Of a DNA stretch of 64,000 nt, positions 4,511 to 59,625 are shown one piece after another. The first letter of the stretch is position 1, and each line of letters begins with the position of its first letter. Under the pieces are notes generated by a model. That model saw nothing but the letters and a program-made list of their open reading frames with translations. It had not been told where the DNA came from and searched no databases. The stretch comes from Candidatus Berkelbacteria bacterium (GTDB taxonomy: Bacteria; Patescibacteriota; UBA1384; DTJR01): contig JAPLVK010000013.1 of the NCBI GenBank assembly GCA_026397175.1, positions 8,232 to 72,231 of the forward strand, written 5' to 3'. The translations under genes were made by a program, and so were the position numbers.

Positions 4511-5128
4511 TTAATAATTTACTGCGGCGAAGGCCTTCATGGAATCAAGAGGCAAGAGGCGAACCCAAACGCGACTTACGAGATTATCAAGCGGGATCGG
4601 ACCTAATTCTCTCGAATCGCGAGAGTGATTGCGGTTATCGCCAAAAACATAATATTCCTTCTCGCCCAATGTGATTTTTTCCTGATTGCCTTGGGATAGC
4701 GCGGTTTGTTCGTCGGAATTTAAATATTTTTCCGTAAGTTCGTTTGAATTTACAAATATCGATCCGTCTTTAATTTCGATTGTATCTCCTGGGAGGCCAA
4801 TAATTCTCTTAATATAATTGACGCTCGTATTGTCCGGCGGATGAAAAATAACGATTTCTCCTCTTTCCGGAGTTCTAAACTTATAAGTTACTTTTTCGGT
4901 AATTAGATAATCGTTATTGTGAAAAGTCGGCTCCATGGATTGTCCTTCAACGATAAACGGCTGAATTATAAAGACCCTGATTATAAACGCTAAAATAACA
5001 ACGATGACGATGGTTTTTACAAAATCAAATAGAGCCAAAAAAAACGATCCGACAGCTGAAGCTTTGGGTGTTTTTTCTTCCGGTTCGTCTTCTTCAAAAT
5101 AATTTTGATCTTTTTGATCTTTGTCCAT
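4511..5128 (-). CDS. lepB: signal peptidase I
   Basis: N-terminal TM helix; GQSMEPTF (catalytic Ser box); GDNRNHSRDSR box E. Confidence 0.85.
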   Translation of the reverse strand: MDKDQKDQNYFEEDEPEEKTPKASAVGSFFLALFDFVKTIVIVVILAFIIRVFIIQPFIVEGQSMEPTFHNNDYLITEKVTYKFRTPERGEIVIFHPPDNTSVNYIKRIIGLPGDTIEIKDGSIFVNSNELTEKYLNSDEQTALSQGNQEKITLGEKEYYVFGDNRNHSRDSRELGPIPLDNLVSRVWVRLLPLDSMKAFAAVNY

Positions 5129-6120: not shown

Positions 6121-6195
6121 TGGTGGTCGCTACTGGATTTGAACCAGTGACATTACGGATGTGAACCGTACGCTCTACCGCTGAGCTAAGCGACC
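6121..6195 (-). tRNA. tRNA-Val (anticodon CAC), CCA encoded
   Basis: reverse complement GGTCGCTTAGCTCAGCGGTAGAGCG...TTCACAT loop...GGTTCAAATCC...AGCGACCACCA folds as a cloverleaf. Confidence 0.85.
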
Positions 6196-12590: not shown

Positions 12591-12951
12591 GCCTAACTAT
12601 TTGAAGTAGCCACCCCCAACGGGGAGGAAAGTCCGGGCGCCGCAGAGTAGAGTACCCATGATAAATGGGCTGCCGTGAGGCAAGGGAATAGTACAACAGA
12701 AAATATACCGCTTGAGCCCTTCGGGGCGAAATCCTGAACGCAGTCGAAGGATTGTTTTCAGGTCGAGCAAGGTTGAAATCGTGCGGTAAGAGCGCACGCT
12801 TTCGGCGGGAAACCGCCGTCTGTGAAAACCCTATTTGGCGCAAGTTGAGTGGACCAATATCATCAATAATGATTACTCGTCAGATGACCGCGGTCTCAAC
12901 GCATAGATAGATGGCTACATAAACAGAACCCGGCTTATCGGATAGTTAGGC
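12591..12951 (+). ncRNA. rnpB: RNase P RNA, bacterial type A
   Basis: GGAGGAAAGTCCGGGC (P4 5' strand), ACAGAAAATATACCGC, GTGCGGTAAGAGCGCAC, ACAGAACCCGGCTTATCGG (P4 3' strand); P1 pairing gcctaactat/atagttaggc. Confidence 0.85.
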
Positions 12952-12962
12952 AAAATTAGTTC

Positions 12963-13799: not shown

Positions 13800-14870
13800 A
13801 TGACAAACAAATATGATGACATGTCCGAGGAAGAACTGATACAGAAACTCGATCGGGGCTTTATGGGACCAGAAGATTTAAAAGATATAGTTTCTGCCAT
13901 GGAAGCTAAGGGAATGAAAGGTGGATTAATTGGTATTGATGAGGATGATCCGATGTCGGAAAAAGTCGCGAAACAGTACATTGATTACCACAAAAATATA
14001 AGTACCAGCTCTCCGACATCAAGGATGGTCAAAAAGGCAATCAAACAATTATTAATTAAAAACATTACTGATAAGGAAATTAAAGAAATTATCCTCATTT
14101 TGGCTCACTCGGGTAATGTAAAAGCCCTTCGCGCCCTTGAGAAGTTCTCGAAAAAATCAGAGGGTGAATTAAGGCAATGGGCACAAATGGGAATCAGTGA
14201 ATGCAAGATGTTTTTAGAGTCGGAGCTGCTAGATAGGGCCAAAATAAAAGTTGAAGATCTTAGCAACACTAATCAAAGTACTAGCGTCGGAAAGAGCTCT
14301 GCCACCGGTAGATTATTTGAATATTTGTTTAGTAATCAAGAGGAAGTTGAAAAAGCAATCGAAGAATTTTTTGATAATTCATCTATCCCAAAAAACACAA
14401 TTCCTTTTGAAAACGAAGCAGAGGAAGACCTTTTTGCCGATTGGATAGTATTCGATTATCGCCTATCAAGTGGAAGCAAGCTAATCGAAAGTTTTATCAG
14501 GGAGTTTGGCGACGAATTGTCAGAGAAAGACAGAAATAGTTATGAAGAAATGCAATTTAATAAGTATGGCTTGTTTGAAGTTAAACGAATTATGCTTGAC
14601 GAGTGGATCGACCTTGAAAGTATATCTACCTCAAAAGTGTATAGAGTAAAAGAGAAAATGGGAACTTACGGAACTTCCGTTGGGCGTTTACTCATAGGGC
14701 GACTTGGCAAGCAGGACGGACAGTGGCGCATAATTGGCTCAAACCCAATCGAAGTACCTGTACACTTGAGCAAGGGTGCGAAGCAATGTTTTGCCAAAAT
14801 AAAAGATCTATCCCCAAAATTTTTTCGCGGATTCGCAAAGAAGATAAAATATCCCGACCAAAAGCAGTGA
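13800..14870 (+). CDS. hypothetical protein (356 aa)
   Basis: long ORF with no recognisable motif. Confidence 0.5.
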   Translation: MTNKYDDMSEEELIQKLDRGFMGPEDLKDIVSAMEAKGMKGGLIGIDEDDPMSEKVAKQYIDYHKNISTSSPTSRMVKKAIKQLLIKNITDKEIKEIILILAHSGNVKALRALEKFSKKSEGELRQWAQMGISECKMFLESELLDRAKIKVEDLSNTNQSTSVGKSSATGRLFEYLFSNQEEVEKAIEEFFDNSSIPKNTIPFENEAEEDLFADWIVFDYRLSSGSKLIESFIREFGDELSEKDRNSYEEMQFNKYGLFEVKRIMLDEWIDLESISTSKVYRVKEKMGTYGTSVGRLLIGRLGKQDGQWRIIGSNPIEVPVHLSKGAKQCFAKIKDLSPKFFRGFAKKIKYPDQKQ

Positions 14871-15010
14871 ATAACACCCACAAAACGCCCTCCATTCACT
14901 ACTTATTGACAAAAAGGCGTGAATAAAACGATTGTTGTGTCATTGCGAGCTTAGCGAAGCAATCTAATCCGTGCTCCGACACGAAAATCATTTGTCGGAG
15001 AATTGTAGCC

Positions 15011-15055
15011 ATAACCGTGAAAAATGTAATTAATTAAGCCTATTTTCACGGTTAT
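15011..15055. promoter_or_regulatory. perfect 13-bp inverted repeat (ataaccgtgaaaa, 19 nt spacer, ttttcacggttat) abutting the fic -35; operator-like
   Basis: read directly. Confidence 0.5.
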
Positions 15056-15056
15056 A

Positions 15057-15085
15057 TTGACAAAAGCGTTAAAAATGAATACAAT
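15057..15085 (+). promoter_or_regulatory. consensus sigma70 promoter (TTGACA, 17 nt spacer, TACAAT) for the fic-hsd operon
   Basis: -35 at 15057-15062, -10 at 15080-15085. Confidence 0.55.
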
Positions 15086-15128
15086 TAGAGCATAATAATG
15101 AATTTAAAATAATTTAAAAAGCGACATT

Positions 15129-16016
15129 ATGGCAAAAACACTTAATGTTTTCAACAAAATAAGCTCACTTCGCAAAAGATATTATAAAGCGTCCACCGGT
15201 AAAGACGCGCTGGTTAAGCTTATCACTGAAGCCGAAGTGGCCGAGCAGGTCTATAACTCAAATGCGATCGAAAATAGCACTCTAACACTTGAAGAAACCG
15301 AAAAAATACTTATGCAGATCGATCTGGATAGATTTATCAATGAACGAGAAATATTTGAAGCAAAAAATCTGGCGCGAGTCGTATCGTACATCGGCAATAA
15401 GGCCAAAGAGCAAGAACTCAATCTCCCAATGATTTTGCTGCTTCATGAAATGTTGATTTCCAACATTCGCGACGATGTTGCAGGAAGGTTCAGAAAAGAT
15501 AACGAATTTGTTCGCGTTGGCAGTCATATTGCTCCTAACCCAAAAGAGGTGGTGGATCGTCTGTCAAAAATGCTGGCCGAATATAATGCCGCAAGTAACG
15601 AGAATATCATCAAGCGGATTGCAAAATTGCATCTTACTTTTGAATATACACATCCATTTGTCGACGGTAATGGTCGCATTGGCCGCGTTATTAATAATTA
15701 TTTATTGATTCGAGAAGGGTATGTGCCGATAAATATTAAATTTATTGATCGGAAAATGTATTACGAAGCTTTCAGAGAATTTGATTCTAAAGGCGAGACA
15801 GCGGTGATGGAAGAAATTGTCGGTAAAGCTTTGACGAATAGTTATCATAAAAGATTAGCGTATTTGGAAAACAAAAAGATTATTTCTCTTGTCGACCATG
15901 CGAAAAATAACAAAATTTCTCATTCCAATTTGATAAATAAGGCCAACCGTCAGACCATTGAGGCCTTTCTGGAAAAGAATATTTGGAAAATTGGCGTTAA
16001 AAATGATAAAGAATGA
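15129..16016 (+). CDS. fic: Fic-family AMPylator, class II (N-terminal inhibitory motif SNAIEN)
   Basis: HPFVDGNGRIGR Fic motif; [ST]xxxE[GN] inhibitory motif near the N-terminus. Confidence 0.85.
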   Translation: MAKTLNVFNKISSLRKRYYKASTGKDALVKLITEAEVAEQVYNSNAIENSTLTLEETEKILMQIDLDRFINEREIFEAKNLARVVSYIGNKAKEQELNLPMILLLHEMLISNIRDDVAGRFRKDNEFVRVGSHIAPNPKEVVDRLSKMLAEYNAASNENIIKRIAKLHLTFEYTHPFVDGNGRIGRVINNYLLIREGYVPINIKFIDRKMYYEAFREFDSKGETAVMEEIVGKALTNSYHKRLAYLENKKIISLVDHAKNNKISHSNLINKANRQTIEAFLEKNIWKIGVKNDKE

Positions 16017-16178
16017 AAACTTATAAACGAATCAAAAATAAGAGTGAAATATATTGACCCAAACTTAAATAAAAACCCCTTGCCTCCGATATCGAATCCG
16101 CCATCACATTTCAGGAAAAATTCTTCAAGCATAAATTAGTTACAAGACAATGTATGAACAATATTTAAGAAAAAATCA

Positions 16179-17039
16179 TTGCAAAAAATAGGTAATATGA
16201 AAAAGAAAATAATTATCACTCAAGGTTTACAAATATATACATTTCAACAGAACAAAAATGATTATATTTCGTTGACTGATATGGCGAAGTATAAGGATGC
16301 AGAAAGAACTGATTATATTATCCAAAACTGGATGAGAACAATGGATACGATTGAGTTTTTGGGTATTTGGGAGCAGATCAATAATCCTAATTTTAAACCC
16401 ATCGAATTCGATGGGTTTAAAGAAAAAGCTGGTTCTAACAGTTTCTCTCTCACTCCAAAGAGGTGGATCGAAGCGGTAAACGCCATTGGTATGATAAATA
16501 AAGCTGGTCGCTATGGGGGCGGTACTTTCGCCCATAAGGACATTGCATTTGAGTTTGCCACTTGGCTTTCGCCCGAATTCAAACTCTATTTGATTAAGGA
16601 ATTTCAGCGCCTTAAAATCGAGGAGAATGAACGTCTGACTTTAGGTTGGGATGTTAAGCGACAGCTCACCAAAATCAATTACCGCATTCATACCGATGCC
16701 ATTCAAAAAAATCTGATACCAAAAGAAATTTCTAAGACACAAACAAAAATTATTTATGCCTCGGAAGCAGATGTTTTAAATATGGCGTTGTTTGGTTTAA
16801 CTGCCAAGGATTGGAAAGCGAGTAATAAGAGCAAAGCAGGCAATATGCGCGATTATGCGGATGTTTGCCAGCTCGTCGTCTTGGCGAATTTGGAAGGATT
16901 AAATGCTGAATTTATCAGACAGAAATTAACACAACCAGAACGACTCTTAAAATTAAATGAAATTGCTATAATCCAGATGAGTTCTTTGCTGGGCAGCCCA
17001 GGTCTTCAGAAATTAAAGGACAAGAATGCCAATATTTAA
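16179..17039 (+). CDS. KilA-N domain protein (phage-associated)
   Basis: ISLTDMAK...GGGTFAHKDIAFEFATWLSPEFKLY resembles KilA-N. Confidence 0.6.
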   Translation: MQKIGNMKKKIIITQGLQIYTFQQNKNDYISLTDMAKYKDAERTDYIIQNWMRTMDTIEFLGIWEQINNPNFKPIEFDGFKEKAGSNSFSLTPKRWIEAVNAIGMINKAGRYGGGTFAHKDIAFEFATWLSPEFKLYLIKEFQRLKIEENERLTLGWDVKRQLTKINYRIHTDAIQKNLIPKEISKTQTKIIYASEADVLNMALFGLTAKDWKASNKSKAGNMRDYADVCQLVVLANLEGLNAEFIRQKLTQPERLLKLNEIAIIQMSSLLGSPGLQKLKDKNANI

Positions 17040-17060
17040 AATAAACGATTCATACCAGAA

Positions 17061-17243
17061 ATGAAAATTAAAGACACACCAAAAATTAAGAAAGAAATTA
17101 CCCGTCAATGCGCTATCTGCGGGAAGAATATTTTAGTTAAGGTTTTTGTCAATGAAAAGTATATCGGTGGAAATTATTTTTGTGATATCCCAACAGTCGG
17201 AGAATATTGGGAATGTGATAAATGCTACAATAACTGGAAATAA
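17061..17243 (+). CDS. small Cys-rich (zinc-ribbon-like) protein, translationally coupled to hsdM
   Basis: CAIC...C...C..C pattern; stop 3 nt before the hsdM ATG. Confidence 0.4.
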
Positions 17244-17245
17244 TT

Positions 17246-18763
17246 ATGGCAAAAAATACATCAGCAAATATAGGGTTTGAGGAAAAGCTTTGGGCGGCGG
17301 CAGATAAGATGCGCGGCAATATGGATCCAGCCGAATACAAGCATATTGTTTTAGGTCTTATTTTTTTGAAGTATATTTCGGACTCATTTGAATTGCTTCA
17401 CTCCAAAATTGAGAAAGAAGATGGGAGCGATGAAGCCGAGGACAAGGATTATTATACCGCCGAAAATACTTTCTGGGTGCCAAAAAAATCACGCTGGAAC
17501 TATATTCGTGATAATGCTCGCAAATCTGAAATTGGAAAAATCATTGACGACGCCATGTACGCGATCGAAAAAGAAAATCCTGACCTAAAGGGTGTTTTGC
17601 GCAAAGATTTTGCTCGACCGGCTCTCGACAAACAGCGGCTTGCGGGAGTTATTGATGTTATAAGCCAAGTTGACATGCAGGAAAATCAATCTCGCGATAT
17701 CATCGGCCGCATTTACGAGTATTTTCTTGGCAGATTTGCTGGTAGCGAAGGTAAGGGCGGGGGTGAATTTTATACTCCGCAATGTATAGTTAAACTGCTG
17801 GTAAATATGATTGAGCCATACAGCGGCCGTGTTTATGATCCGTGCTGTGGTAGCGGCGGCATGTTTGTTCAGGCAGAAATTTTCAACCAAAACAGCGAAG
17901 GCAGGAATGACGATTTAATCGTACTTGGTGAAGAGTCAAACCATACCACTTGGCAACTGTGCAAAATGAATCTCGCACTACATCATGTTGACAGTTCTAA
18001 AATAAAGTATGGAAATAGTTTTCACAGCGATCAACATCCAGACCTAAAAGCTGATTTTGTTCTGGCTAATCCGCCCTTCAACGATTCTGATTGGGATGGC
18101 CAGCTTTTGCGAAATGATGTTCGCTGGAAATATGGTGTGCCGCCAACTAGCAATGCAAACTATGCTTGGATGCAACATTTCATCCACCATTTATCGCCAA
18201 CCGGAATAGCCGGTTTCGTTATGGCGAACGGTGCAATGGCGGCGAACCAGTCCGGTGAGGGCGAAATCAGAAAGAATTTAATCAAGGCCGGCCTAGTTGA
18301 TTGTATGATAGCAATGCCAGACAAGCTTTTTTATAATGTACAAATTCCTTGCTCATTGTGGTTTCTGTCGCGCGATCGGTACGATCACAAATTCCGTAAC
18401 CGTCATGATGAAATTCTCTTTATCGATGCGCGAAAAATCGGCAAAATGGTTGACCGTCGACATCGCGAACTATCGGAAGAAGATATTAAAAAAATATCGG
18501 ATACATATCACAACTGGCGAAGTACAAGCGGTAAATATGAAGATATCAAAGGATTCTGCAAAGCCGCGAAAATAGAAGAGGTGGAGAAAAATGGTTTTGT
18601 CTTAACCCCCGGTCGCTATGTCGGCACCGAGCTCGTCGAGGAAGACGACGAAGTTTTTGAGGAAAAAATGAAGCGATTAACCACCGAACTTAACCAGCAG
18701 TTTGAGCAATCAAAAAGAATGGAAGAAAAAATTAGTGATATTTGGAATAAAATTGAATATTAA
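17246..18763 (+). CDS. hsdM: Type I restriction-modification methyltransferase subunit
   Basis: HsdM N-terminal domain; [10 protein letters not shown] (motif I); LANPPFN (motif IV). Confidence 0.95.
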
Positions 18764-19484
18764 CCAAGCAGAATTAAAACTCCTTAAACTTTTAAAAGAC
18801 ATTAATCATTTCTATGTAGACAAATGTCTTGATTCTGTTGAAACTTGCAAATTGTCGTGTTTGCACGACAAGGTACTATTTGTTCTTTTTCTTAAAAGCT
18901 ATCAAACTTCCACGGCTATGTCACAAATCAGTGAGTATGATGAAGAATTATTAATGCTTGCAAGAACAATATTTGAAAATTATATTAATGCGAAATATAT
19001 ATTGAAAAACGACTCTGAAAAAATGGCTAAGTTGTTTTTAAACTTTGGTAAGATGTCTTCAATTAACTTATTAATTAAAATGAGTCCAGCCAGTAGCTCA
19101 AAGAAATTACTTTTACGATTAAAAATGTTACAGTCAGAGAGGGTGGCAGAAACAAAGAGTTTTGAAATAACAAGTCAATATAATTGGTCTTGCAAAACGC
19201 TGAAGTATATGGCTGAGTCTGTCGGATGCCTCGACGAATATGACATTACCTATAATTTATGTAGTATGTCAATCCACTCATGCTCTGTTAATCTTAAAAG
19301 GTATATTTTGCCCGAGGTTGAAAAGAATGATCAACTTAAAATACTTTCAAAATTAATTTCGATTAATAATAACTTAATGATGTTAGAGTTAGTATCTGAG
19401 CATTTTAATCTTGGGTTAGAAAACGATATTAAAGATTTTGCTAATGTCAAAAAAAGTATTGTTGATACATTAAGCTTTAAATAA
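18702..19484 (+). CDS. unknown protein embedded between hsdM and hsdS (the start may be the ATG at about 18918)
   Basis: ORF in a different frame overlapping the hsdM 3' end; no recognisable motif. Confidence 0.45.
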
Positions 19485-19539
19485 TAGCATTAATAATAAA
19501 AAAAATCCAAGATACCAAGCTGGGGCTAATTAGAGAGGA

Positions 19540-20178
19540 TTGGATAACAATAAAATGAAAACAGCCATGGATTATATAGTCAATCATAAAGAATATTTTG
19601 TGATTATTGCCCAGCTAGCAATAGCTCCATTGGTTATTGGTGTTATTTCCGGTTATGTGGCAAACGCGCTGTCAGCAAAAATTGATAAGAAGAAGTGGGA
19701 ACACGCAGAAAATTATTTTAATAAACAAGTCGAAATTCTATTAATGAAAACGCTACTATCTTTAAGAATTTATTCTGGGCTCAAGCTCGATAACGAATTT
19801 GCGGAAGGGAAGAAGGTTTTAGATTTTATAAAAATAAATCTCATCGATAATATTGAAAATTATAAAAAGACAATAATGTTTCCGACCGCAAAAGCTGGTC
19901 AGATGTTCGCTAGCAATCTAGCAGGTTTGAAGCAAGAGTCAGAGTCTTTGCATAGACAATTGCTTAGTTTTCAAATTCCAAATGCTAAACTCCTTAAAAT
20001 AATTGAGGATCTAATACAAGAGATCGATTTAATCCTAATCCCTTTTCAAGTGTTCCCAGAAATTATTGATCCTCAATATGCTAGTGATAAAAATCTAGAA
20101 TTAGATAGAAGTAGTCTATTTGTTAATTATAAAAACCTAGCAATTATTAGCTATAAGTTTATAAATGATATTACATAA
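19540..20178 (+). CDS. unknown membrane-anchored protein (one N-terminal TM helix) embedded between hsdM and hsdS
   Basis: hydrophobic segment IIAQLAIAPLVIGVISGYVANAL; overlaps the hsdS start by 14 nt. Confidence 0.5.
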   Translation: MDNNKMKTAMDYIVNHKEYFVIIAQLAIAPLVIGVISGYVANALSAKIDKKKWEHAENYFNKQVEILLMKTLLSLRIYSGLKLDNEFAEGKKVLDFIKINLIDNIENYKKTIMFPTAKAGQMFASNLAGLKQESESLHRQLLSFQIPNAKLLKIIEDLIQEIDLILIPFQVFPEIIDPQYASDKNLELDRSSLFVNYKNLAIISYKFINDIT

Positions 20179-21358
20179 CGACACAAAATTTAAAGAAACT
20201 GAGCTGGGACTAATTCCGGAGGATTGGGAAATTGATATGCTCGGAAACCGAGCCGATGTTATCATGGGCCAATCTCCTGAATCAAAATATTACAACAAAA
20301 ACCAAGAGGGCCTGTACTTTATGCAAGGGGTAAGAACCTTTGGCGAAAAATATCCGATCTTTGACACTTGGACGACAAGCGCAACTAAAACCGCACCAGC
20401 AGAATCAGTTCTTATGAGCGTCAGAGCTCCGGTTGGTGATCTAAACATTACTCCAGTAGAAATGTGTCTTGGCCGAGGCCTTGCTGCCATAAATGCTAAA
20501 AATGGCAATAACGAATACATCTATCAGCTATTAGAAGCATATCGAGATAAAGTCCTTGGGCAAGAGACGGGAACAGTCTATGGTTCTATTTCTAGAGATG
20601 ACATTTTTAACCTAGAACTACCTTTTGCCCCAAAAGATGAACAGCAAAAAATTGCGGAGGTTTTGGGGACGTTGGATGAGAAGATTGAATTGAATCACAA
20701 AATGAATAAAACTCTGGAATCCCTCGCCCAGGCGATATTTAAAAAATGGTTTATCGAGAATGCTGATCCGGACTGGGAAACTAAGAAACTTAAAGACATT
20801 TGTGAAATTAAAAATGGCTTTGCATTTAAAAGTGGAGATTATTCAAAAGAAGGCATTTTTCTATTACGCACAAGCAATTTTAACTCTGAAGGATACGCGG
20901 TTAAAAATGACCCCATATTTTTACCGAATAATTTCTATCAAACATTCTCAAATTACCGTCTCAAAAGATTTGATATATTGCTTGTAATGGTTGGAGCGAG
21001 TGTTGGTAAGCGATCATTTGTATTTTCAAATATATTGCCAGCACTTCAGAATCAGAATATGTGGAATTTCCGTGCGTATGACCAAAAGAATCAGTTCTTC
21101 CTAAAATTTATGATTGATCAAATTGTCGAATCGAATATTGGATCGGCTTCTGGCAGTGCTCGAGATTTTTTTCGTAAGGATTATTTCAGAGAAATCGAAT
21201 TCAACTTACCCAACCAGAATCTTCTTGATAAATTTTATGAAAGATTATTACCCCAGTTCGAAATGATTGATAAAAATATAAAAGAAATCGACACTTTATC
21301 GCAAATCCGCGATTCCCTTTTGCCAAGATTAATGAGTGGAAAACTGAGGGTAACTTAA
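20165..21358 (+). CDS. hsdS: Type I R-M specificity subunit with two target-recognition domains
   Basis: conserved central and C-terminal HsdS repeats (LPFAPKDEQQKIAEVLGTLDEKIELN; LPRLMSGKL). Confidence 0.9.
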   Translation: MILHNDTKFKETELGLIPEDWEIDMLGNRADVIMGQSPESKYYNKNQEGLYFMQGVRTFGEKYPIFDTWTTSATKTAPAESVLMSVRAPVGDLNITPVEMCLGRGLAAINAKNGNNEYIYQLLEAYRDKVLGQETGTVYGSISRDDIFNLELPFAPKDEQQKIAEVLGTLDEKIELNHKMNKTLESLAQAIFKKWFIENADPDWETKKLKDICEIKNGFAFKSGDYSKEGIFLLRTSNFNSEGYAVKNDPIFLPNNFYQTFSNYRLKRFDILLVMVGASVGKRSFVFSNILPALQNQNMWNFRAYDQKNQFFLKFMIDQIVESNIGSASGSARDFFRKDYFREIEFNLPNQNLLDKFYERLLPQFEMIDKNIKEIDTLSQIRDSLLPRLMSGKLRVT

Positions 21359-21373
21359 TTAATAAGGAGAAGT

Positions 21374-22096
21374 ATGAGCAAAAAGAATGACTCATTTATT
21401 TCTAGACAAATCATAGAAGTCCGTTTTAAAAACAAAGTATTCAATTTTATTGATATCAGGGGAGAGTTTGCTGATTATGTTGTTAATAAATTGAAGTACG
21501 AAGAAATTGCAATTGCTGGAAATAGGGTTGACTTTACAACACTTGATAGAACTAAAAAAAGCTTTTTCAGCTGGGAAAACTTCGGGATTCAGCTTGACGG
21601 AGAAGGTAATTTCGACAACTTCAATAAGAGTATTAGTGAAAATATTGTAATGCTCAAAAATTATAAAAAAATTTCTCTTCCAGAAATAATTAGGATCGGT
21701 ACGCGGATTACTGGGTTGTATCACTTCCCAAATAAGTCAGTCGCCCAAATCAAGAAATCATTCGATGATGTATTCTTCTCTCATCAGGCACTATTTGAGG
21801 AGAAATCTGGAATATCAATTAAGGATAATGGGCTTTTTGCAATGGATATAGAAAAAGAAGGATTAAAGGCTCATGTTAGCGTCGGGATAATGACTAAAGA
21901 TGAATCGATCGCAAAAGTTTTTTCGGATAAACTCTATGATGCTTACAATTACGAATCAGGAATTTTTCATGATATCGACTTATATGACGAGGCTCCAACA
22001 GTTAAAAACTTTGATGACCTTCAGTCGAGAGTATCATCTCAAATTGAAAAACTGAGACAGTTACAATTAGATATTGTAAAAAAACTGGAGCAATAA
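21374..22096 (+). CDS. unknown protein (240 aa) embedded between hsdS and hsdR
   Basis: strong SD AAGGAG; no recognisable motif. Confidence 0.55.
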   Translation: MSKKNDSFISRQIIEVRFKNKVFNFIDIRGEFADYVVNKLKYEEIAIAGNRVDFTTLDRTKKSFFSWENFGIQLDGEGNFDNFNKSISENIVMLKNYKKISLPEIIRIGTRITGLYHFPNKSVAQIKKSFDDVFFSHQALFEEKSGISIKDNGLFAMDIEKEGLKAHVSVGIMTKDESIAKVFSDKLYDAYNYESGIFHDIDLYDEAPTVKNFDDLQSRVSSQIEKLRQLQLDIVKKLEQ

Positions 22097-22097
22097 G

Positions 22098-22619
22098 ATG
22101 GACGAGAACCAGGCAGATCACACCCAAGGCTCTGCTATACAACCGGACTTTATTTCTGTTAAAAATTCCGGGGAAGAGACAAGCCCAGGAACTGAGAAAA
22201 ATATTGATAAAGTTATTGAGGACAAGGGTCCCGGGGGTTTTGTAATTGGCTTAGTTGATTCATTTGAGAAAAAATTTCCTACTGCCTTCTTTATTCTCGT
22301 GGTTGTAGGATATATTATTATCGAATCATTTGGTTCTCATAATATAAGAATTTACCAATACTCGGCAGTAATCTTGGTGAGCTTGATATTCTATTGTTTT
22401 TTAAAGTATTCGAGCGAAATTTTTGGTTGGTTTAGGCGGATTGGGTTAGAAGCAAAAAATAATCAAATAGCTACATATCTGGTCTCGTTTCTTGTTGTTG
22501 CGGTATTATGTATAGTATATTACTATTTCGGAACTCCGAAGTTATACTTTGAAAAGCGTCATAAGATTATCAATTCCGCTTGTGTGCAAACACAGCAATT
22601 TATTAAGGGGACTGAATGA
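22098..22619 (+). CDS. unknown small membrane protein (3-4 TM helices) embedded between hsdS and hsdR
   Basis: starts 2 nt after the previous stop; ATGA overlap with hsdR. Confidence 0.5.
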
Positions 22620-25600
22620 AATATACAGAATCAACATTAGAAGAAGCGACGAAGGAATGGTTTGAGGAATTGGGATACCAAACTATTTATGGGCCGGAGA
22701 TTGAGTCGGAAGCCGAAAAAGCCGAGCGGAAGGACTTTTCGCAAGTGGTTTTGGAAGGACGGCTAAAAAGTGCAATTGAAAAGCTAAATCCAAACATTCC
22801 AGCGGATGCAGTCGAAGAAGCATTTAAGAAAGTGGTTAATGTTACAAATGCTACTTCGCTTTTGATTTCGAACAATCAGCTTTTTCATAAATATTTGGTA
22901 AATGGAATTGATGTTGAGTATCGCCGAGACGATGGCACGATTGCTGGGGATAAAGTCTGGCTTATAGATAAAGAGAATATTGATAATAATGATTGGGTTT
23001 GGCTGGATCAGTTTACGGTAAAAGAGAACGAGATCCTGAAACAAGTTCAGGATGACACAAGGGTCAGGCGGCCGGATGTGGTGATATTTGTGAACGGTTT
23101 GCCACTCGCTGTTTTTGAACTCAAGAATTTGGCTGATGAAAATGTGGGGATCAAAGAAGCGTTCAATCAGTTTCAAACTTATAAAAACGATATTCCCTCG
23201 CTTTTTGCATATAGCGAACTTCTGGTAATTTCCGACGGGGCGGAAGCCAAAGTCGGCTCCATAACCTCGGATAATGATCGGTTTATGCGCTGGCGAAGTG
23301 TTGACGGCGCAGAATTAGCAAGCGATGCCGTGCCACAATTAGAAACTTTAATTAAAGGAGTGTTTGATAAAAAGCGCTTTCTGGACATTGTTTGTAATTT
23401 TATTGTTTTTAATACATTTAAAACCCCACTTCGCCAAGGTTACGCGGGGCAGGCATCCGGCGTAGAAAATATTGCCAAGATAGTACCGGCTTATCACCAG
23501 TATTTTGCAACAAACAAAGCCCTAGAAAGCACTATTCAGGCAACTGCAGATGATGGCGATCAGCGCGCCGGTGTGGTTTGGCACACACAGGGAAGCGGAA
23601 AGAGTTTAACTATGGCATTCTATGCCGGCAAGCTGATCCAAGCTTTGAAAAATCCGACGGTTGTTGTTTTGACTGATAGGAACGATTTGGACGATCAGCT
23701 TTTTGATACTTTTAGCAAGTGTTCCGACCTATTAAAACAAACACCTGTTCAAGCCAAGAACCGACGACACCTACGAGAGCTTCTGAAAGTAGCCAGTGGC
23801 GGGGTGGTATTTACTACCATTCAAAAGTTTTTGGACAAGGGTTTTCTGGAGAAAATGTTGTTAACTGATCGAAGAAATGCTGTAGTGATTGCCGATGAAG
23901 CCCACCGCAGCCAATATGATTTTATTGATGGCTATGCCAGAAGCATGAGAGAATCATTACCAAATGCTTCGTTTATTGGCTTTACGGGTACACCGATCGA
24001 GTTGTCCGACAAAAACACAAAGGCGGTTTTTGGCGGTTATGTCGATGTCTATGATATTTCCCAAGCTGTGGCCGATAAAGCAACCGTGCCGATATTTTAT
24101 GAAGCCAGATTGGCAAAAATTAATTTACTGGAAAGTGAAAAACCAAAAATTGATGCTGATTTCAATGATATTACTGAGGGCGAAGAAGTCGAAATGGTTG
24201 AGAAGCTCAAGAATAAATGGGCGCGACTTGAGGCGATGGTCGGTAGCGAAAAACGAATTAAACAAATTGCGCAGGATATTGTCGAACATTTCGAAAACCG
24301 GCTAGATGTGATGGATGGCAAGGGGATGATAGTTTCGATGAGTCGAAGAATTGCTGTTGAACTTTATGATGAAATTATTAAGCTTAGGCCGGATTGGCAT
24401 AACGATTCTGATAAAAAAGGTTTTATTAAAGTAATTATGACCGGTTCGGCCAGTGATCCATTGCCTTATCAAAAACATATTCGCAATAAAGAGTCTTTGC
24501 GCGAGATGGCAGATCGGATGAAAGATCCGAGCGATGAGTTGAAATTGGTAATTGTTCGGGACATGTGGCTGACAGGTTTTGATGTGCCAAGCATGCACAC
24601 AATGTACATAGATAAGCCGATGAAGGGTCATGGACTGATGCAGGCGATTGCTAGAGTTAATCGAGTTTATAAAGAGAAGCCGGGCGGTTTGGTTGTTGAC
24701 TATTTAGGCATTGCTCCGCAACTCAAGGAGGCCTTGGCTGAATATTCCGAAAACGATCAGGAAAACACGGCAATAGATCAGGAGAAAGCCGTTTCTGTCA
24801 TGCTTGAGAAATTCGAAGTTTTGCGAGGAATATTTCACGAGTTTGATTACGAGAGATATTTTAAGATGAAGCGATCTGACAAGACGAAATTTTTCGGTGA
24901 TGCTATGGATTTTGTTTTATCAATAGAGCCGGATAATGAAGAATCTAAAAAACGGTTTAATAAGGCAGTGGTTGAGCTATCAAAAGCCTTTGCTCTGGCA
25001 GTGCCGCACGAAAAAGCATTAAAGATTAAGGATCATGTCGGGTTTTTCCAGGCGTTAAAAGCATATGTTCGAAAAATTTCGCCTGTTTCCGGGCCGACTG
25101 AAGAAGATTATGATTTAGCCATCAAGCAAATTGTTTCAGATTCGATCGCATCCGGCGAAATAATCGATGTATTTAAGGCGGCTGGACTCGGTAAGCCAAA
25201 TGTTGAAATTCTCTCCGATGAATTTTTGGAGGAAGTGCGAGGGCTGGGCAGAAAAAATGTTGCTTTGGAAATATTAAAGAAGCTGCTGAATGATGAGATC
25301 AGATCGATTATGCGCAAGAATATGGTAAAAGGAAAATCATTTGCCGAGATGTTGGAAGCGACTCTGATTAAATATCAAAACCGAACAATAGAAGCGGCAC
25401 AGGTGATTGCCGATCTAATTGAACTGGCTAAAGAATTGAGAGGCGAAGTTAAGCGAGGAAAAGAGACGGGGCTGTCTGACGATGAAATTGCGTTTTACGA
25501 TGCTTTGGCCGAAAATGAGAGCGCAAAACTTGAGATTGGTGATGAAACGCTAAAAAAGATCGCCAAAGAGCTGGTTGTGATGATGCGAGAGAACGCGACG

Positions 25601-25759
25601 ATTGATTGGACATTGCGCGACGCAATTAAAGCAAGAATGAGAATCTATATTAAGAAATTGTTGAAAAAGTACGATTATCCGCCAGACAAACAGGAAGGCG
25701 CAACTCAGCTGGTTTTGTTGCAAGCCGAAACGATTGGAAAAGATTGGGGAGAAAAGTAA
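22616..25759 (+). CDS. hsdR: Type I restriction enzyme R subunit
   Basis: Walker A GSGKS; DEAH box [10 protein letters not shown]; overall HsdR architecture. Confidence 0.95.
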
Positions 25760-59549: not shown

Positions 59550-59625
59550 TGGTGGACCCGACAAGATTCGAACTTGCGACCTCTTCCATGCCATGGAAGC
59601 GCTCTACCAGCTAAGCTACGGGCCC
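59550..59625 (-). tRNA. tRNA-Ala (anticodon GGC), with G3:U70 and CCA encoded
   Basis: reverse complement GGGCCCGTAGCTTAGCTGGTAGAGCG CTTCC ATGGCAT GGAAG ...GGTCGCAAGTTCGAATCTTGTCGGGTCCACCA. Confidence 0.8.

Follow-up and report, generated by a model that had tools for sequence, protein, structure and literature searches.

A class II Fic gene with a three-site operator: a probable mobile cassette ahead of type I restriction-modification genes in Candidatus Berkelbacteria

The DNA analyzed here (hereinafter, the window) is a 64,000-nt stretch of chromosomal DNA from a metagenome-assembled genome (MAG) of Candidatus Berkelbacteria (contig JAPLVK010000013.1), in which a gene encoding a Fic protein, preceded by a promoter with a long inverted repeat, lies upstream of the genes of a type I restriction-modification (R-M) system. 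The segment of ~1.07 kb from approximately 15000 to 16065 is probably a self-contained, horizontally spread fic cassette that consists of a three-site operator, a promoter, and the gene for a class II Fic, and the Fic protein most probably represses its own promoter through its C-terminal segment, following the principle described for the Yersinia pseudotuberculosis protein CccR; the cassette and the autorepression, taken jointly, can be given a probability of about 0.65. A second and more tentative result concerns a conserved hairpin-forming palindrome inside the adjacent gene, which encodes a KilA-N domain protein.

The fic cassette and its operator

All the sequence features listed in a preliminary description of this DNA were found where it had placed them (Table 1), beginning with the perfect 13-bp inverted repeat with a 19-nt spacer immediately before a TTGACA-17-TACAAT promoter. 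The two arms, ATAACCGTGAAAA (half-site A) and TTTTCACGGTTAT (half-site B), are complementary at 13 of 13 positions, their centers are 32 bp apart, and the TTGACA hexamer begins one base after B. Another half-site, C (AAGCGTTAAAAAT), lies in the promoter spacer; as B is in the reverse and C in the forward orientation and the two flank the -35 hexamer, they form a second inverted repeat centered on it. Elsewhere in the window, the 13-mer half-site has just two matches, with 2 mismatches each, which is the chance level.

A functionless coincidence of palindrome and promoter has next to no probability. AT-rich genomes do hold many short inverted repeats, and promoter-like sites are as frequent here as in shuffled sequences (43 between 13.5 and 26.5 kb compared to the expected 39.1, i.e., not above chance); the fic promoter, scoring 11/12, is the top match in this interval. 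However, perfect inverted repeats with arms of 13 bp or more and a spacer of no more than 40 nt occur at four distinct places in the window, compared to the mean of 0.18 in first-order Markov shuffles (n = 100; 14 of the 100 contained any such repeat), and, given this rarity, a palindrome that adjoins the top promoter is not a chance event. Its base-for-base conservation in more than 40 genomes, with a variant form in about 70 more loci, effectively refutes this explanation, and the operator-like character that the preliminary description ascribed to the palindrome is upheld: it is a conserved element beside a real promoter. Two other perfect inverted repeats of 13 bp or more, at positions 780-808 and 1631-1660, are probably terminators.

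The element goes with fic. Three orthologs of the window Fic (93%, 89%, and 84% identical) are encoded in three unrelated neighborhoods, all without genes for KilA-N, the zinc-ribbon protein, or HsdM, and in the alignment of their upstream regions the half-sites, the -35 and -10 hexamers, and site C show little or no variation; the 18-19-nt stretch separating A from B changes freely from locus to locus. A scan for the exact operator pattern in one genome per species yielded 44 MAGs, including representatives of Patescibacteria, Nitrospirae, Planctomycetales, Bdellovibrionales, and Gammaproteobacteria. A fic ortholog (75-87% identical) begins 30-100 nt past the operator in 35 of these genomes, and in none of the 35 is it followed by any gene for KilA-N, the zinc-ribbon protein, or HsdM. 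The relatives of this Fic number in the thousands, of which the best 120 are 82-95% identical to it and come from many candidate phyla as well as from lineages outside the candidate phyla radiation (CPR); the cassette recurs in MAGs of many phyla and in unrelated gene contexts, with Fic proteins that are 75-95% identical.

The limits of the cassette (~15000 to 16065) follow from those of the conservation, which starts ~12 nt before site A and in some loci ends ~45 nt past the fic stop codon. The 3' tail (TTATAAACGAATC...AATATATTGACC), whose end is the approximate right edge of the cassette, is similar in loci L001, L007, L030, and L014, and the other fic loci diverge right after the stop codon. 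The sequence ATATTGACC in this tail was considered as a second promoter and rejected, as it is not followed by a -10 hexamer.

The same layout is found in a second Fic subfamily. In another Berkelbacteria genome, a Fic protein with ~50% identity to that of the window is encoded behind an identically arranged operator with the half-site CGTGAAT. The sample of 80 loci of this subfamily was retrieved by protein similarity, not by a DNA pattern, and is therefore unbiased with regard to the DNA; nearly all of these loci have the arrangement nnGTGAAT, 22-23 nt, ATTCACnn, 6 nt, TTGAC, 7 nt, nnGTnAAT, and then the -10 hexamer. In this variant form, the operator is found in about 70 loci beyond the exact-pattern genomes. 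A widely spaced inverted-repeat operator within the gene's own promoter is conserved in more than 100 loci and in two Fic subfamilies, with a gap of 22-23 nt between the A and B cores in essentially all of them. The 2-3 bases that flank GTGAA are usually identical among sites A, B, and C of the same locus, and in most relatives site C reads AAnCGTGAAAA.

Just upstream of the cassette lies a decayed second module (Table 1), which has lost its -10 hexamer, retains the spacings of 23, 6, and 7 nt seen in the modules of the second subfamily (L068 type), and shares with L068 a ATTCACTACTTATTGACA stretch; its A' site overlaps the stop codon of the open reading frame (ORF) at 13800-14870. Judging from the sequence, this module suggests that an earlier fic cassette occupied the same spot. 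The 8-bp inverted repeat at 14974-15000 is present as initially described, with no T-run after it; it is not conserved in the upstream alignment of the fic loci and was rejected as a part of the operator. It is preceded, at 14938-14970, by a motif resembling repetitive extragenic palindromes, GTCATTGCGAGC...GCAATC, which is also found upstream of the fic cassette in an unrelated genome (L003, ~4800-4850) and may be a dispersed CPR repeat.

The Fic protein and the control of its promoter

The fic product matches the Pfam Fic domain (PF02661) with 79.2 bits, compared to the cut-off of 24. Its active site, HPFVDGNGRIGR (residues 175-186, positions 15651-15686), follows the HxFx(D/E)GNGRxxR pattern, and the inhibitory motif (S/T)xxxE(G/N) is represented by SNAIEN (residues 44-49, positions 15258-15275), located N-terminal to the Fic core and invariant (S44-N-A-I-E48-N49) in 93 relatives. 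The closest relatives in the PDB, FICD/HYPE, belong to class II, and the PDB matches are confined to residues 8-237. By its motifs, this is a class II Fic, as already recognized, and a predicted AMP-transferase. The best PADLOC matches are PDC-S04 (1e-33) and SoFic (1e-26). Past the Fic core, a helix-rich C-terminal segment (approximately residues 250-290, positions 15876-15998) carries the motif N-x-A-x-R-Q-T; the last 45 residues of the protein rank among its most conserved and include three short predicted helices.

Autorepression is proposed because fic is the only gene that is always present in the cassette, because the C terminus of its product is conserved and helical, and because CccR provides a precedent. 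A Fic dimer would bind the GTGAA half-sites A and B via the segment at residues ~250-290 and might also contact site C in the promoter spacer; with B and C bracketing the -35 hexamer, bound Fic would exclude RNA polymerase and thereby hold the amount of the potentially toxic AMP-transferase down in a self-limiting way. What has been established directly is the cis-element, together with its conservation, its link to fic, and the correspondence between operator sequence and protein subfamily; putative Fic binding, repression, and read-through into the downstream genes are inferred. If Fic does bind the three-site operator, it would represent a very widespread and compact toxin that doubles as its own repressor, with thousands of near-identical copies in the candidate-phyla bacteria and other phyla.

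The proposed role of the C-terminal segment is consistent with an association between protein and operator sequences. Among 81 distinct proteins, residue 276 (the x of the invariant motif N-x-A-x-R-Q-x) shares more mutual information than any other alignment column with the base 5' of GTGAA, both in site A and in site B. For site A, Thr is paired with C (33 of 33) and Asn with A (29 of 29), Ser is found 10 times with C and 3 times with A, and Lys goes with G, T, or A; the distribution at site B is similar, and in the second subfamily three separate Arg-Gln-Thr lineages all have C at site A. This would offer a readable recognition rule that relates residue 276 to the base 5' of GTGAA.

Several observations weigh against the cassette with an autorepressing Fic. 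The association just described is confounded by shared ancestry and is supportive, not conclusive; several other alignment columns reach similar mutual information. The C-terminal segment has no credible match among Pfam or PDB profiles. AlphaFold models do not help: for the full-length Fic, the alignment of 41 sequences (82-93% identical) gave a mean predicted local distance difference test score (pLDDT) of 45, which is unusable, and the C-terminal 61 residues alone gave two long helices with an uninformative predicted template modeling score (pTM) of 0.31. Site C of the window itself is degenerate (GTTAA). Finally, 9 of the 44 operator-pattern genomes have no fic ortholog downstream. Three of the 44 have a different toxin-type gene behind the exact operator: in L043 a Fic with a winged helix-turn-helix (HTH) domain, in L052 a RhuM-Doc fusion, and in L041 a DUF6922/AbiEii pair. 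In L027, it is followed by a RhuM-like fragment; in L021, L038, and L044, the last ~12 codons of fic directly follow site C, with one common junction; and in L012 and L018 the operator is a solo copy with unrelated sequence past site C. The scars in L021, L038, and L044 suggest deletion of fic, whether recurrent or inherited. Because of the solo and scar copies and the other toxin genes behind it, the operator can evidently occur without a window-type Fic in cis, and its persistence or recombination without fic leaves room for trans regulation or for a recombinational or structural role. In L043 and L052, the conservation stops right after the -35 hexamer, as if promoters had been swapped there.

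Regulation in trans would mean that the operator is bound by a host factor, the KilA-N protein, or the zinc-ribbon protein instead of Fic. This would suit the operators found before non-orthologous genes and as solo copies, as well as a Fic C terminus that shows no demonstrable DNA-binding fold, and KilA-N is a family of DNA-binding domains. Still, such regulation is unlikely: the KilA-N and zinc-ribbon proteins are missing from all 35 other loci with the operator and fic, the hosts span so many phyla that a shared host regulator is improbable, and the half-site changes with the Fic subfamily and tracks residue 276. The preliminary proposal of a PaaX-like or zinc-ribbon protein as the operator's regulator is not supported, as both are absent from nearly all operator-bearing loci, where fic is the sole constant gene.

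The inverted repeats could also act as nucleic acid structures, i.e., A-B or B-C hairpins, or as recombination sites at the end of an exchangeable cassette. Sites A, B, and C are mutually complementary and usually alike within a locus, and the breaks in conservation after the -35 hexamer (L043 and L052) or after site C (L021, L038, and L044) suggest recurrent recombination. A 13-nt direct repeat, GCGTTAAAAATGA, present at 15066-15078 (promoter spacer and site C) and at 15994-16006 (the 3' end of fic), brackets the coding region; it was not found in the other loci and may be due to chance. This alternative is improbable as well, because the GTGAA core is invariant in sequence, beyond what mere pairing would require, the flanks of A and B are unequal in some loci (e.g., L068, where one has the base C and the other the base A), and the fic mRNA starts only downstream of the element and does not include it. 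Moreover, the fixed distance to the -35 and -10 hexamers points to promoter control, and no recombinase is consistently found nearby. Fic-mediated repression remains the preferred explanation of the operator.

Downstream genes and the KilA-N hairpin

The genes downstream of fic are listed in Table 1. The genes for HsdM, HsdS, and HsdR lie together on one strand and make up a type I R-M system; from hsdM to the end of hsdR (25759), every gene is on the plus strand and the genes overlap or are separated by no more than 55 nt. Only two bases separate the stop codon of the zinc-ribbon gene from the hsdM ATG (17246). Four accessory ORFs, one with a DUF5677 domain and three without a recognized family, lie between the hsd genes and may be R-M-linked defense candidates. 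The window also carries uvrA, rpoB/rpoC, ribosomal protein genes, three tRNA genes (2613-2683, 6124-6195, and 59553-59625), and a gene for bacterial class A RNase P RNA at 12593-12953 (plus strand, 180 bits), which explains the scarcity of ORFs in that stretch.

Table 1. Coordinates of the fic cassette, its surroundings, and the downstream genes in the window
Feature	Position	Strand	Description
Decayed second module	14864-14924	+	A' GTGAA 14867-14871; B' TTCAC 14895-14899; -35' TTGACA 14906-14911; C' GTGAA 14919-14923
8-bp inverted repeat CTCCGACA / TGTCGGAG	14974-14981 / 14993-15000	+	11-nt loop
Half-site A ATAACCGTGAAAA	15011-15023	+	Core GTGAA 15017-15021; invariant across fic loci of differing contexts
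Half-site B TTTTCACGGTTAT	15043-15055	-	Core TTCAC 15045-15049; 7 nt upstream of -35
Promoter TTGACA-17-TACAAT	15057-15085	+	Sigma-70-type; -35 15057-15062, -10 15080-15085
Half-site C AAGCGTTAAAAAT	15064-15076	+	In promoter spacer; core GTTAA 15068-15072
Fic gene	15129-16016	+	295 aa; Pfam Fic PF02661; PADLOC PDC-S04/SoFic
Cassette 3' tail TTATAAACGAATC...AATATATTGACC	16017-16065	+	Approximate right edge; similar in four loci
KilA-N gene	16197-17039	+	280 aa from likely start ATG 16197; ORF opens at 16179
KilA-N palindrome TTTAAACCCATCGAATTCGATGGGTTTAAA	16392-16421	+	Perfect, 30 bp; encodes FKPIEFDGFK
Stem variant TTTAAACACATCGAATTCGATGTGTTTAAA			Encodes FKHIEFDVFK
Stem variant TTTAAACTGGTCGAATTCGACCAGTTTAAA			Encodes FKLVEFDQFK
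Stem variant TTTAATTGCCTCGAATTCGAGGCAATTAAA			Encodes FNCLEFEAIK
Zinc-ribbon gene	17061-17243	+	60 aa, CxxC...CxxC
Zinc-ribbon motif pattern			MKIKDTPK...CxxC...GGNYF...EYWECDKCY; four cysteines
hsdM	17246-18763	+	Pfam/PADLOC; N6_Mtase and HsdM_N
DUF5677 ORF	18702-19484	+	Pfam
212-aa ORF	19540-20178	+	No Pfam, NCBIfam, or PADLOC match
hsdS	20165-21358	+	Methylase_S with two target-recognition stretches
240-aa ORF	21374-22096	+	No Pfam, NCBIfam, or PADLOC match
173-aa ORF	22098-22619	+	No Pfam, NCBIfam, or PADLOC match; resembles membrane protein
hsdR	22616-25759	+	HSDR_N, SWI2_SNF2, and T1RH-like_C domains

The preliminary description had the fic, KilA-N, and zinc-ribbon genes heading the R-M operon as one regulated island of ~10.7 kb under a single promoter. 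The gene order stands, and a fic gene before a methyltransferase gene does recur: among 62 distinct cases, the first gene downstream of a related fic encodes a DNA methyltransferase in 12 (about one-fifth), 9 of these 12 enzymes carry the HsdM N-terminal domain, and several of the genes begin 6 nt past the fic stop codon. However, the promoter and operator are linked to fic and not to the R-M genes, so that they form the 5' part of the fic cassette instead of a control region of the R-M operon. The notion of one regulated island is not supported either: the operator and promoter travel with fic, and the homologs of the KilA-N gene are solitary elsewhere. The island is better described as an apparent mosaic of modules that move independently and are possibly co-transcribed, and the position of fic ahead of an R-M cluster is recurrent, yet only one among the many contexts of this gene.

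Read-through from the fic promoter into the R-M genes is plausible. The 180-nt gap between the fic and KilA-N genes contains no terminator-like site, and there is no stable fold at 16010-16200 (z = +2.1); the promoter-like matches downstream of fic are weak (e.g., 10/12 at 16926-16953). Given the lack of a terminator-like structure after fic and the tight packing of the downstream genes, shared transcription is possible, and the fic promoter may also feed transcripts of the KilA-N, zinc-ribbon, and type I R-M genes. Where it stands directly before hsdM, a self-repressing Fic may be a putative controller of the type I R-M operon. A mobile promoter-plus-toxin cassette that has landed in front of other defense modules may subject them to its own feedback, which changes how the "operons" in defense islands should be read.

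The assignment of the next gene product to the KilA-N family is secure (Pfam PF04383, 72 bits). The protein also matches the PADLOC family PDC-S22 with 430.6 bits (5e-130) over positions 1-277 of the 281 in the model, and, together with the PDC-S04/SoFic match of Fic, this agrees with the earlier view of both genes as defense-type; the PDC families are candidates, and the literature search found no validated antiphage activity of PDC-S22. Relatives that are 70-82% identical to the window protein are encoded by solitary genes among housekeeping genes, with unrelated upstream DNA, and relatives from viral contigs adjoin integrases and CI-like repressors. A promoter or operator shared by the KilA-N genes was rejected, as the upstream regions from three other contexts are not conserved, and the small ORFs behind other KilA-N genes show no relationship to the zinc-ribbon protein.

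The 60-aa protein with its CxxC...C..C pattern is present as described and has no match in Pfam, NCBIfam, or PADLOC. It is rare (10 protein clusters), and its neighbors are KilA-N, RhuM, or Fic in R-M neighborhoods: in a second Berkelbacteria genome, Fic, KilA-N, and the zinc-ribbon protein are encoded ahead of a type II-like R-M system, and in other contexts the gene is found in the order uvrA, zinc-ribbon, KilA-N or overlaps a RhuM gene upstream of hsdR. In L068, a remnant of the zinc-ribbon C terminus (..WECGKCYKGWEK and stop) is found at 2940-2990, between the fic stop codon and the KilA-N gene. This remnant suggests insertion of the fic cassette into an older zinc-ribbon/KilA-N pair.

The KilA-N gene contains a perfect 30-bp palindrome (Table 1), which is kept in 96 homologous loci (L056-L072 and L151-L230) as 37 distinct sequences; compensatory substitutions preserve the stem even at the cost of amino acid replacements in the protein. 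Standard pairs occupy 94.4% of the stem cells, compared to 76.7% in shuffles, and 7 of the 13 pairs have changed on both sides; the covariation score of 0.473 was reached in none of 500 shuffles (0.146) and drops to 0.18 or less once the pairing is offset by 1-3 columns. The codon pairs change together, e.g., from Pro/Gly to His/Val, Leu/Gln, Gly/Ser, or Arg/Ala, and the peptide pairs in 120 protein relatives (Pro-Gly, His-Val, Ala-Gly, Gly-Ala, and Ser-Ala) obey the reverse-complement codon rules. As RNA, the stem of the window has a predicted folding energy of -18.1 kcal/mol (z = -5.0). G:T mismatches outnumber A:C ones in the stem 27 to 12, which mildly favors folding of the sense strand.

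Tentatively, with odds slightly short of even, this palindrome may be regarded as a functional nucleic acid element within the KilA-N coding sequence, a stem with 13-15 bp and a conserved TCGAATTCGA core, selected so strongly that it determines four to six residues of the protein. As the center and ends are conserved and the middle covaries freely, a putative hairpin or cruciform is favored over a simple duplex binding site. It could be a hairpin with a regulatory or trigger-sensing role in a candidate defense or prophage gene, acting at the mRNA level or as a cruciform in the DNA that is recognized by the KilA-N protein or by an adjacent recombinase. An attP or other integrase site is unlikely: the KilA-N gene is uninterrupted both in prophages and outside them, and what the variable middle of the stem requires is pairing rather than a particular sequence. 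The stem has no match in Rfam, and the literature search found no description of such a hairpin. If functional, it would be a nucleic acid structure that overrides protein sequence in a candidate defense gene and would provide a handle on an obscure family.

Comparison with known systems

In type II R-M systems, controller (C) proteins act at C-boxes; C-proteins are not known for type I systems. The arrangement in the window resembles theirs in having a palindromic operator over the promoter at the head of an R-M cluster, with possible feedback on the downstream R-M genes. It differs in that the operator belongs to a toxin gene that is mostly found without R-M genes and in the lack of a small HTH C-protein: no HTH_3-type ORF was found in 15000-25759.

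The presence of Fic/Doc and RhuM genes inside R-M operons is a known theme, described as "multi-level defense" (Anantharaman et al. 2013, PMC3710099). The window shares with these systems a Fic, a KilA-N/RhuM-type protein, and small accessory genes beside or within type I R-M operons. Those descriptions and the PADLOC families deal with gene neighborhoods alone, whereas the window adds an operator, probable autoregulation, and an intragenic hairpin. In one study, PDC-S04 had no defense activity (bioRxiv 10.1101/2024.12.20.629700).

Among toxin-antitoxin systems, AbiEi, as cited in the CccR study (PMC9755527), binds two inverted repeats and autoregulates the toxin-antitoxin promoter. With the type II and type IV systems, the fic cassette would share feedback repression of a toxic gene by way of inverted repeats in its promoter; unlike these systems, it consists of a single gene, in which an intramolecular inhibitory helix would take the part of the "antitoxin" and the toxin itself carries the putative DNA-binding segment.

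The closest parallel is CccR, a class II Fic of Y. pseudotuberculosis with a C-terminal HTH, which dimerizes back to back and represses its own promoter at an operator made of 10-bp inverted repeats 26 bp apart (PMC9755527). Both proteins belong to class II, with the (S/T)xxxE(G/N) motif in the N-terminal part and an extra C-terminal segment past the Fic core; the cores are homologous (PDB 7XUX, E = 3e-5 with a single sequence and 1e-11 with a profile), and both genes have a long-spaced inverted-repeat operator in their own promoter, 10 bp + N26 in CccR and 13 bp + N19 here. The differences are in the C-terminal segments, where the HTH of CccR spans residues 276-380 (~105 aa) and the Fic of the window has a segment of ~45 aa with no detectable sequence similarity to it; in the third half-site of the operator described here, which lies within the promoter spacer; and in the biological setting, as CccR is an effector secreted by the type VI secretion system, whereas the gene described here is a probable mobile chromosomal gene of CPR bacteria located beside R-M genes.

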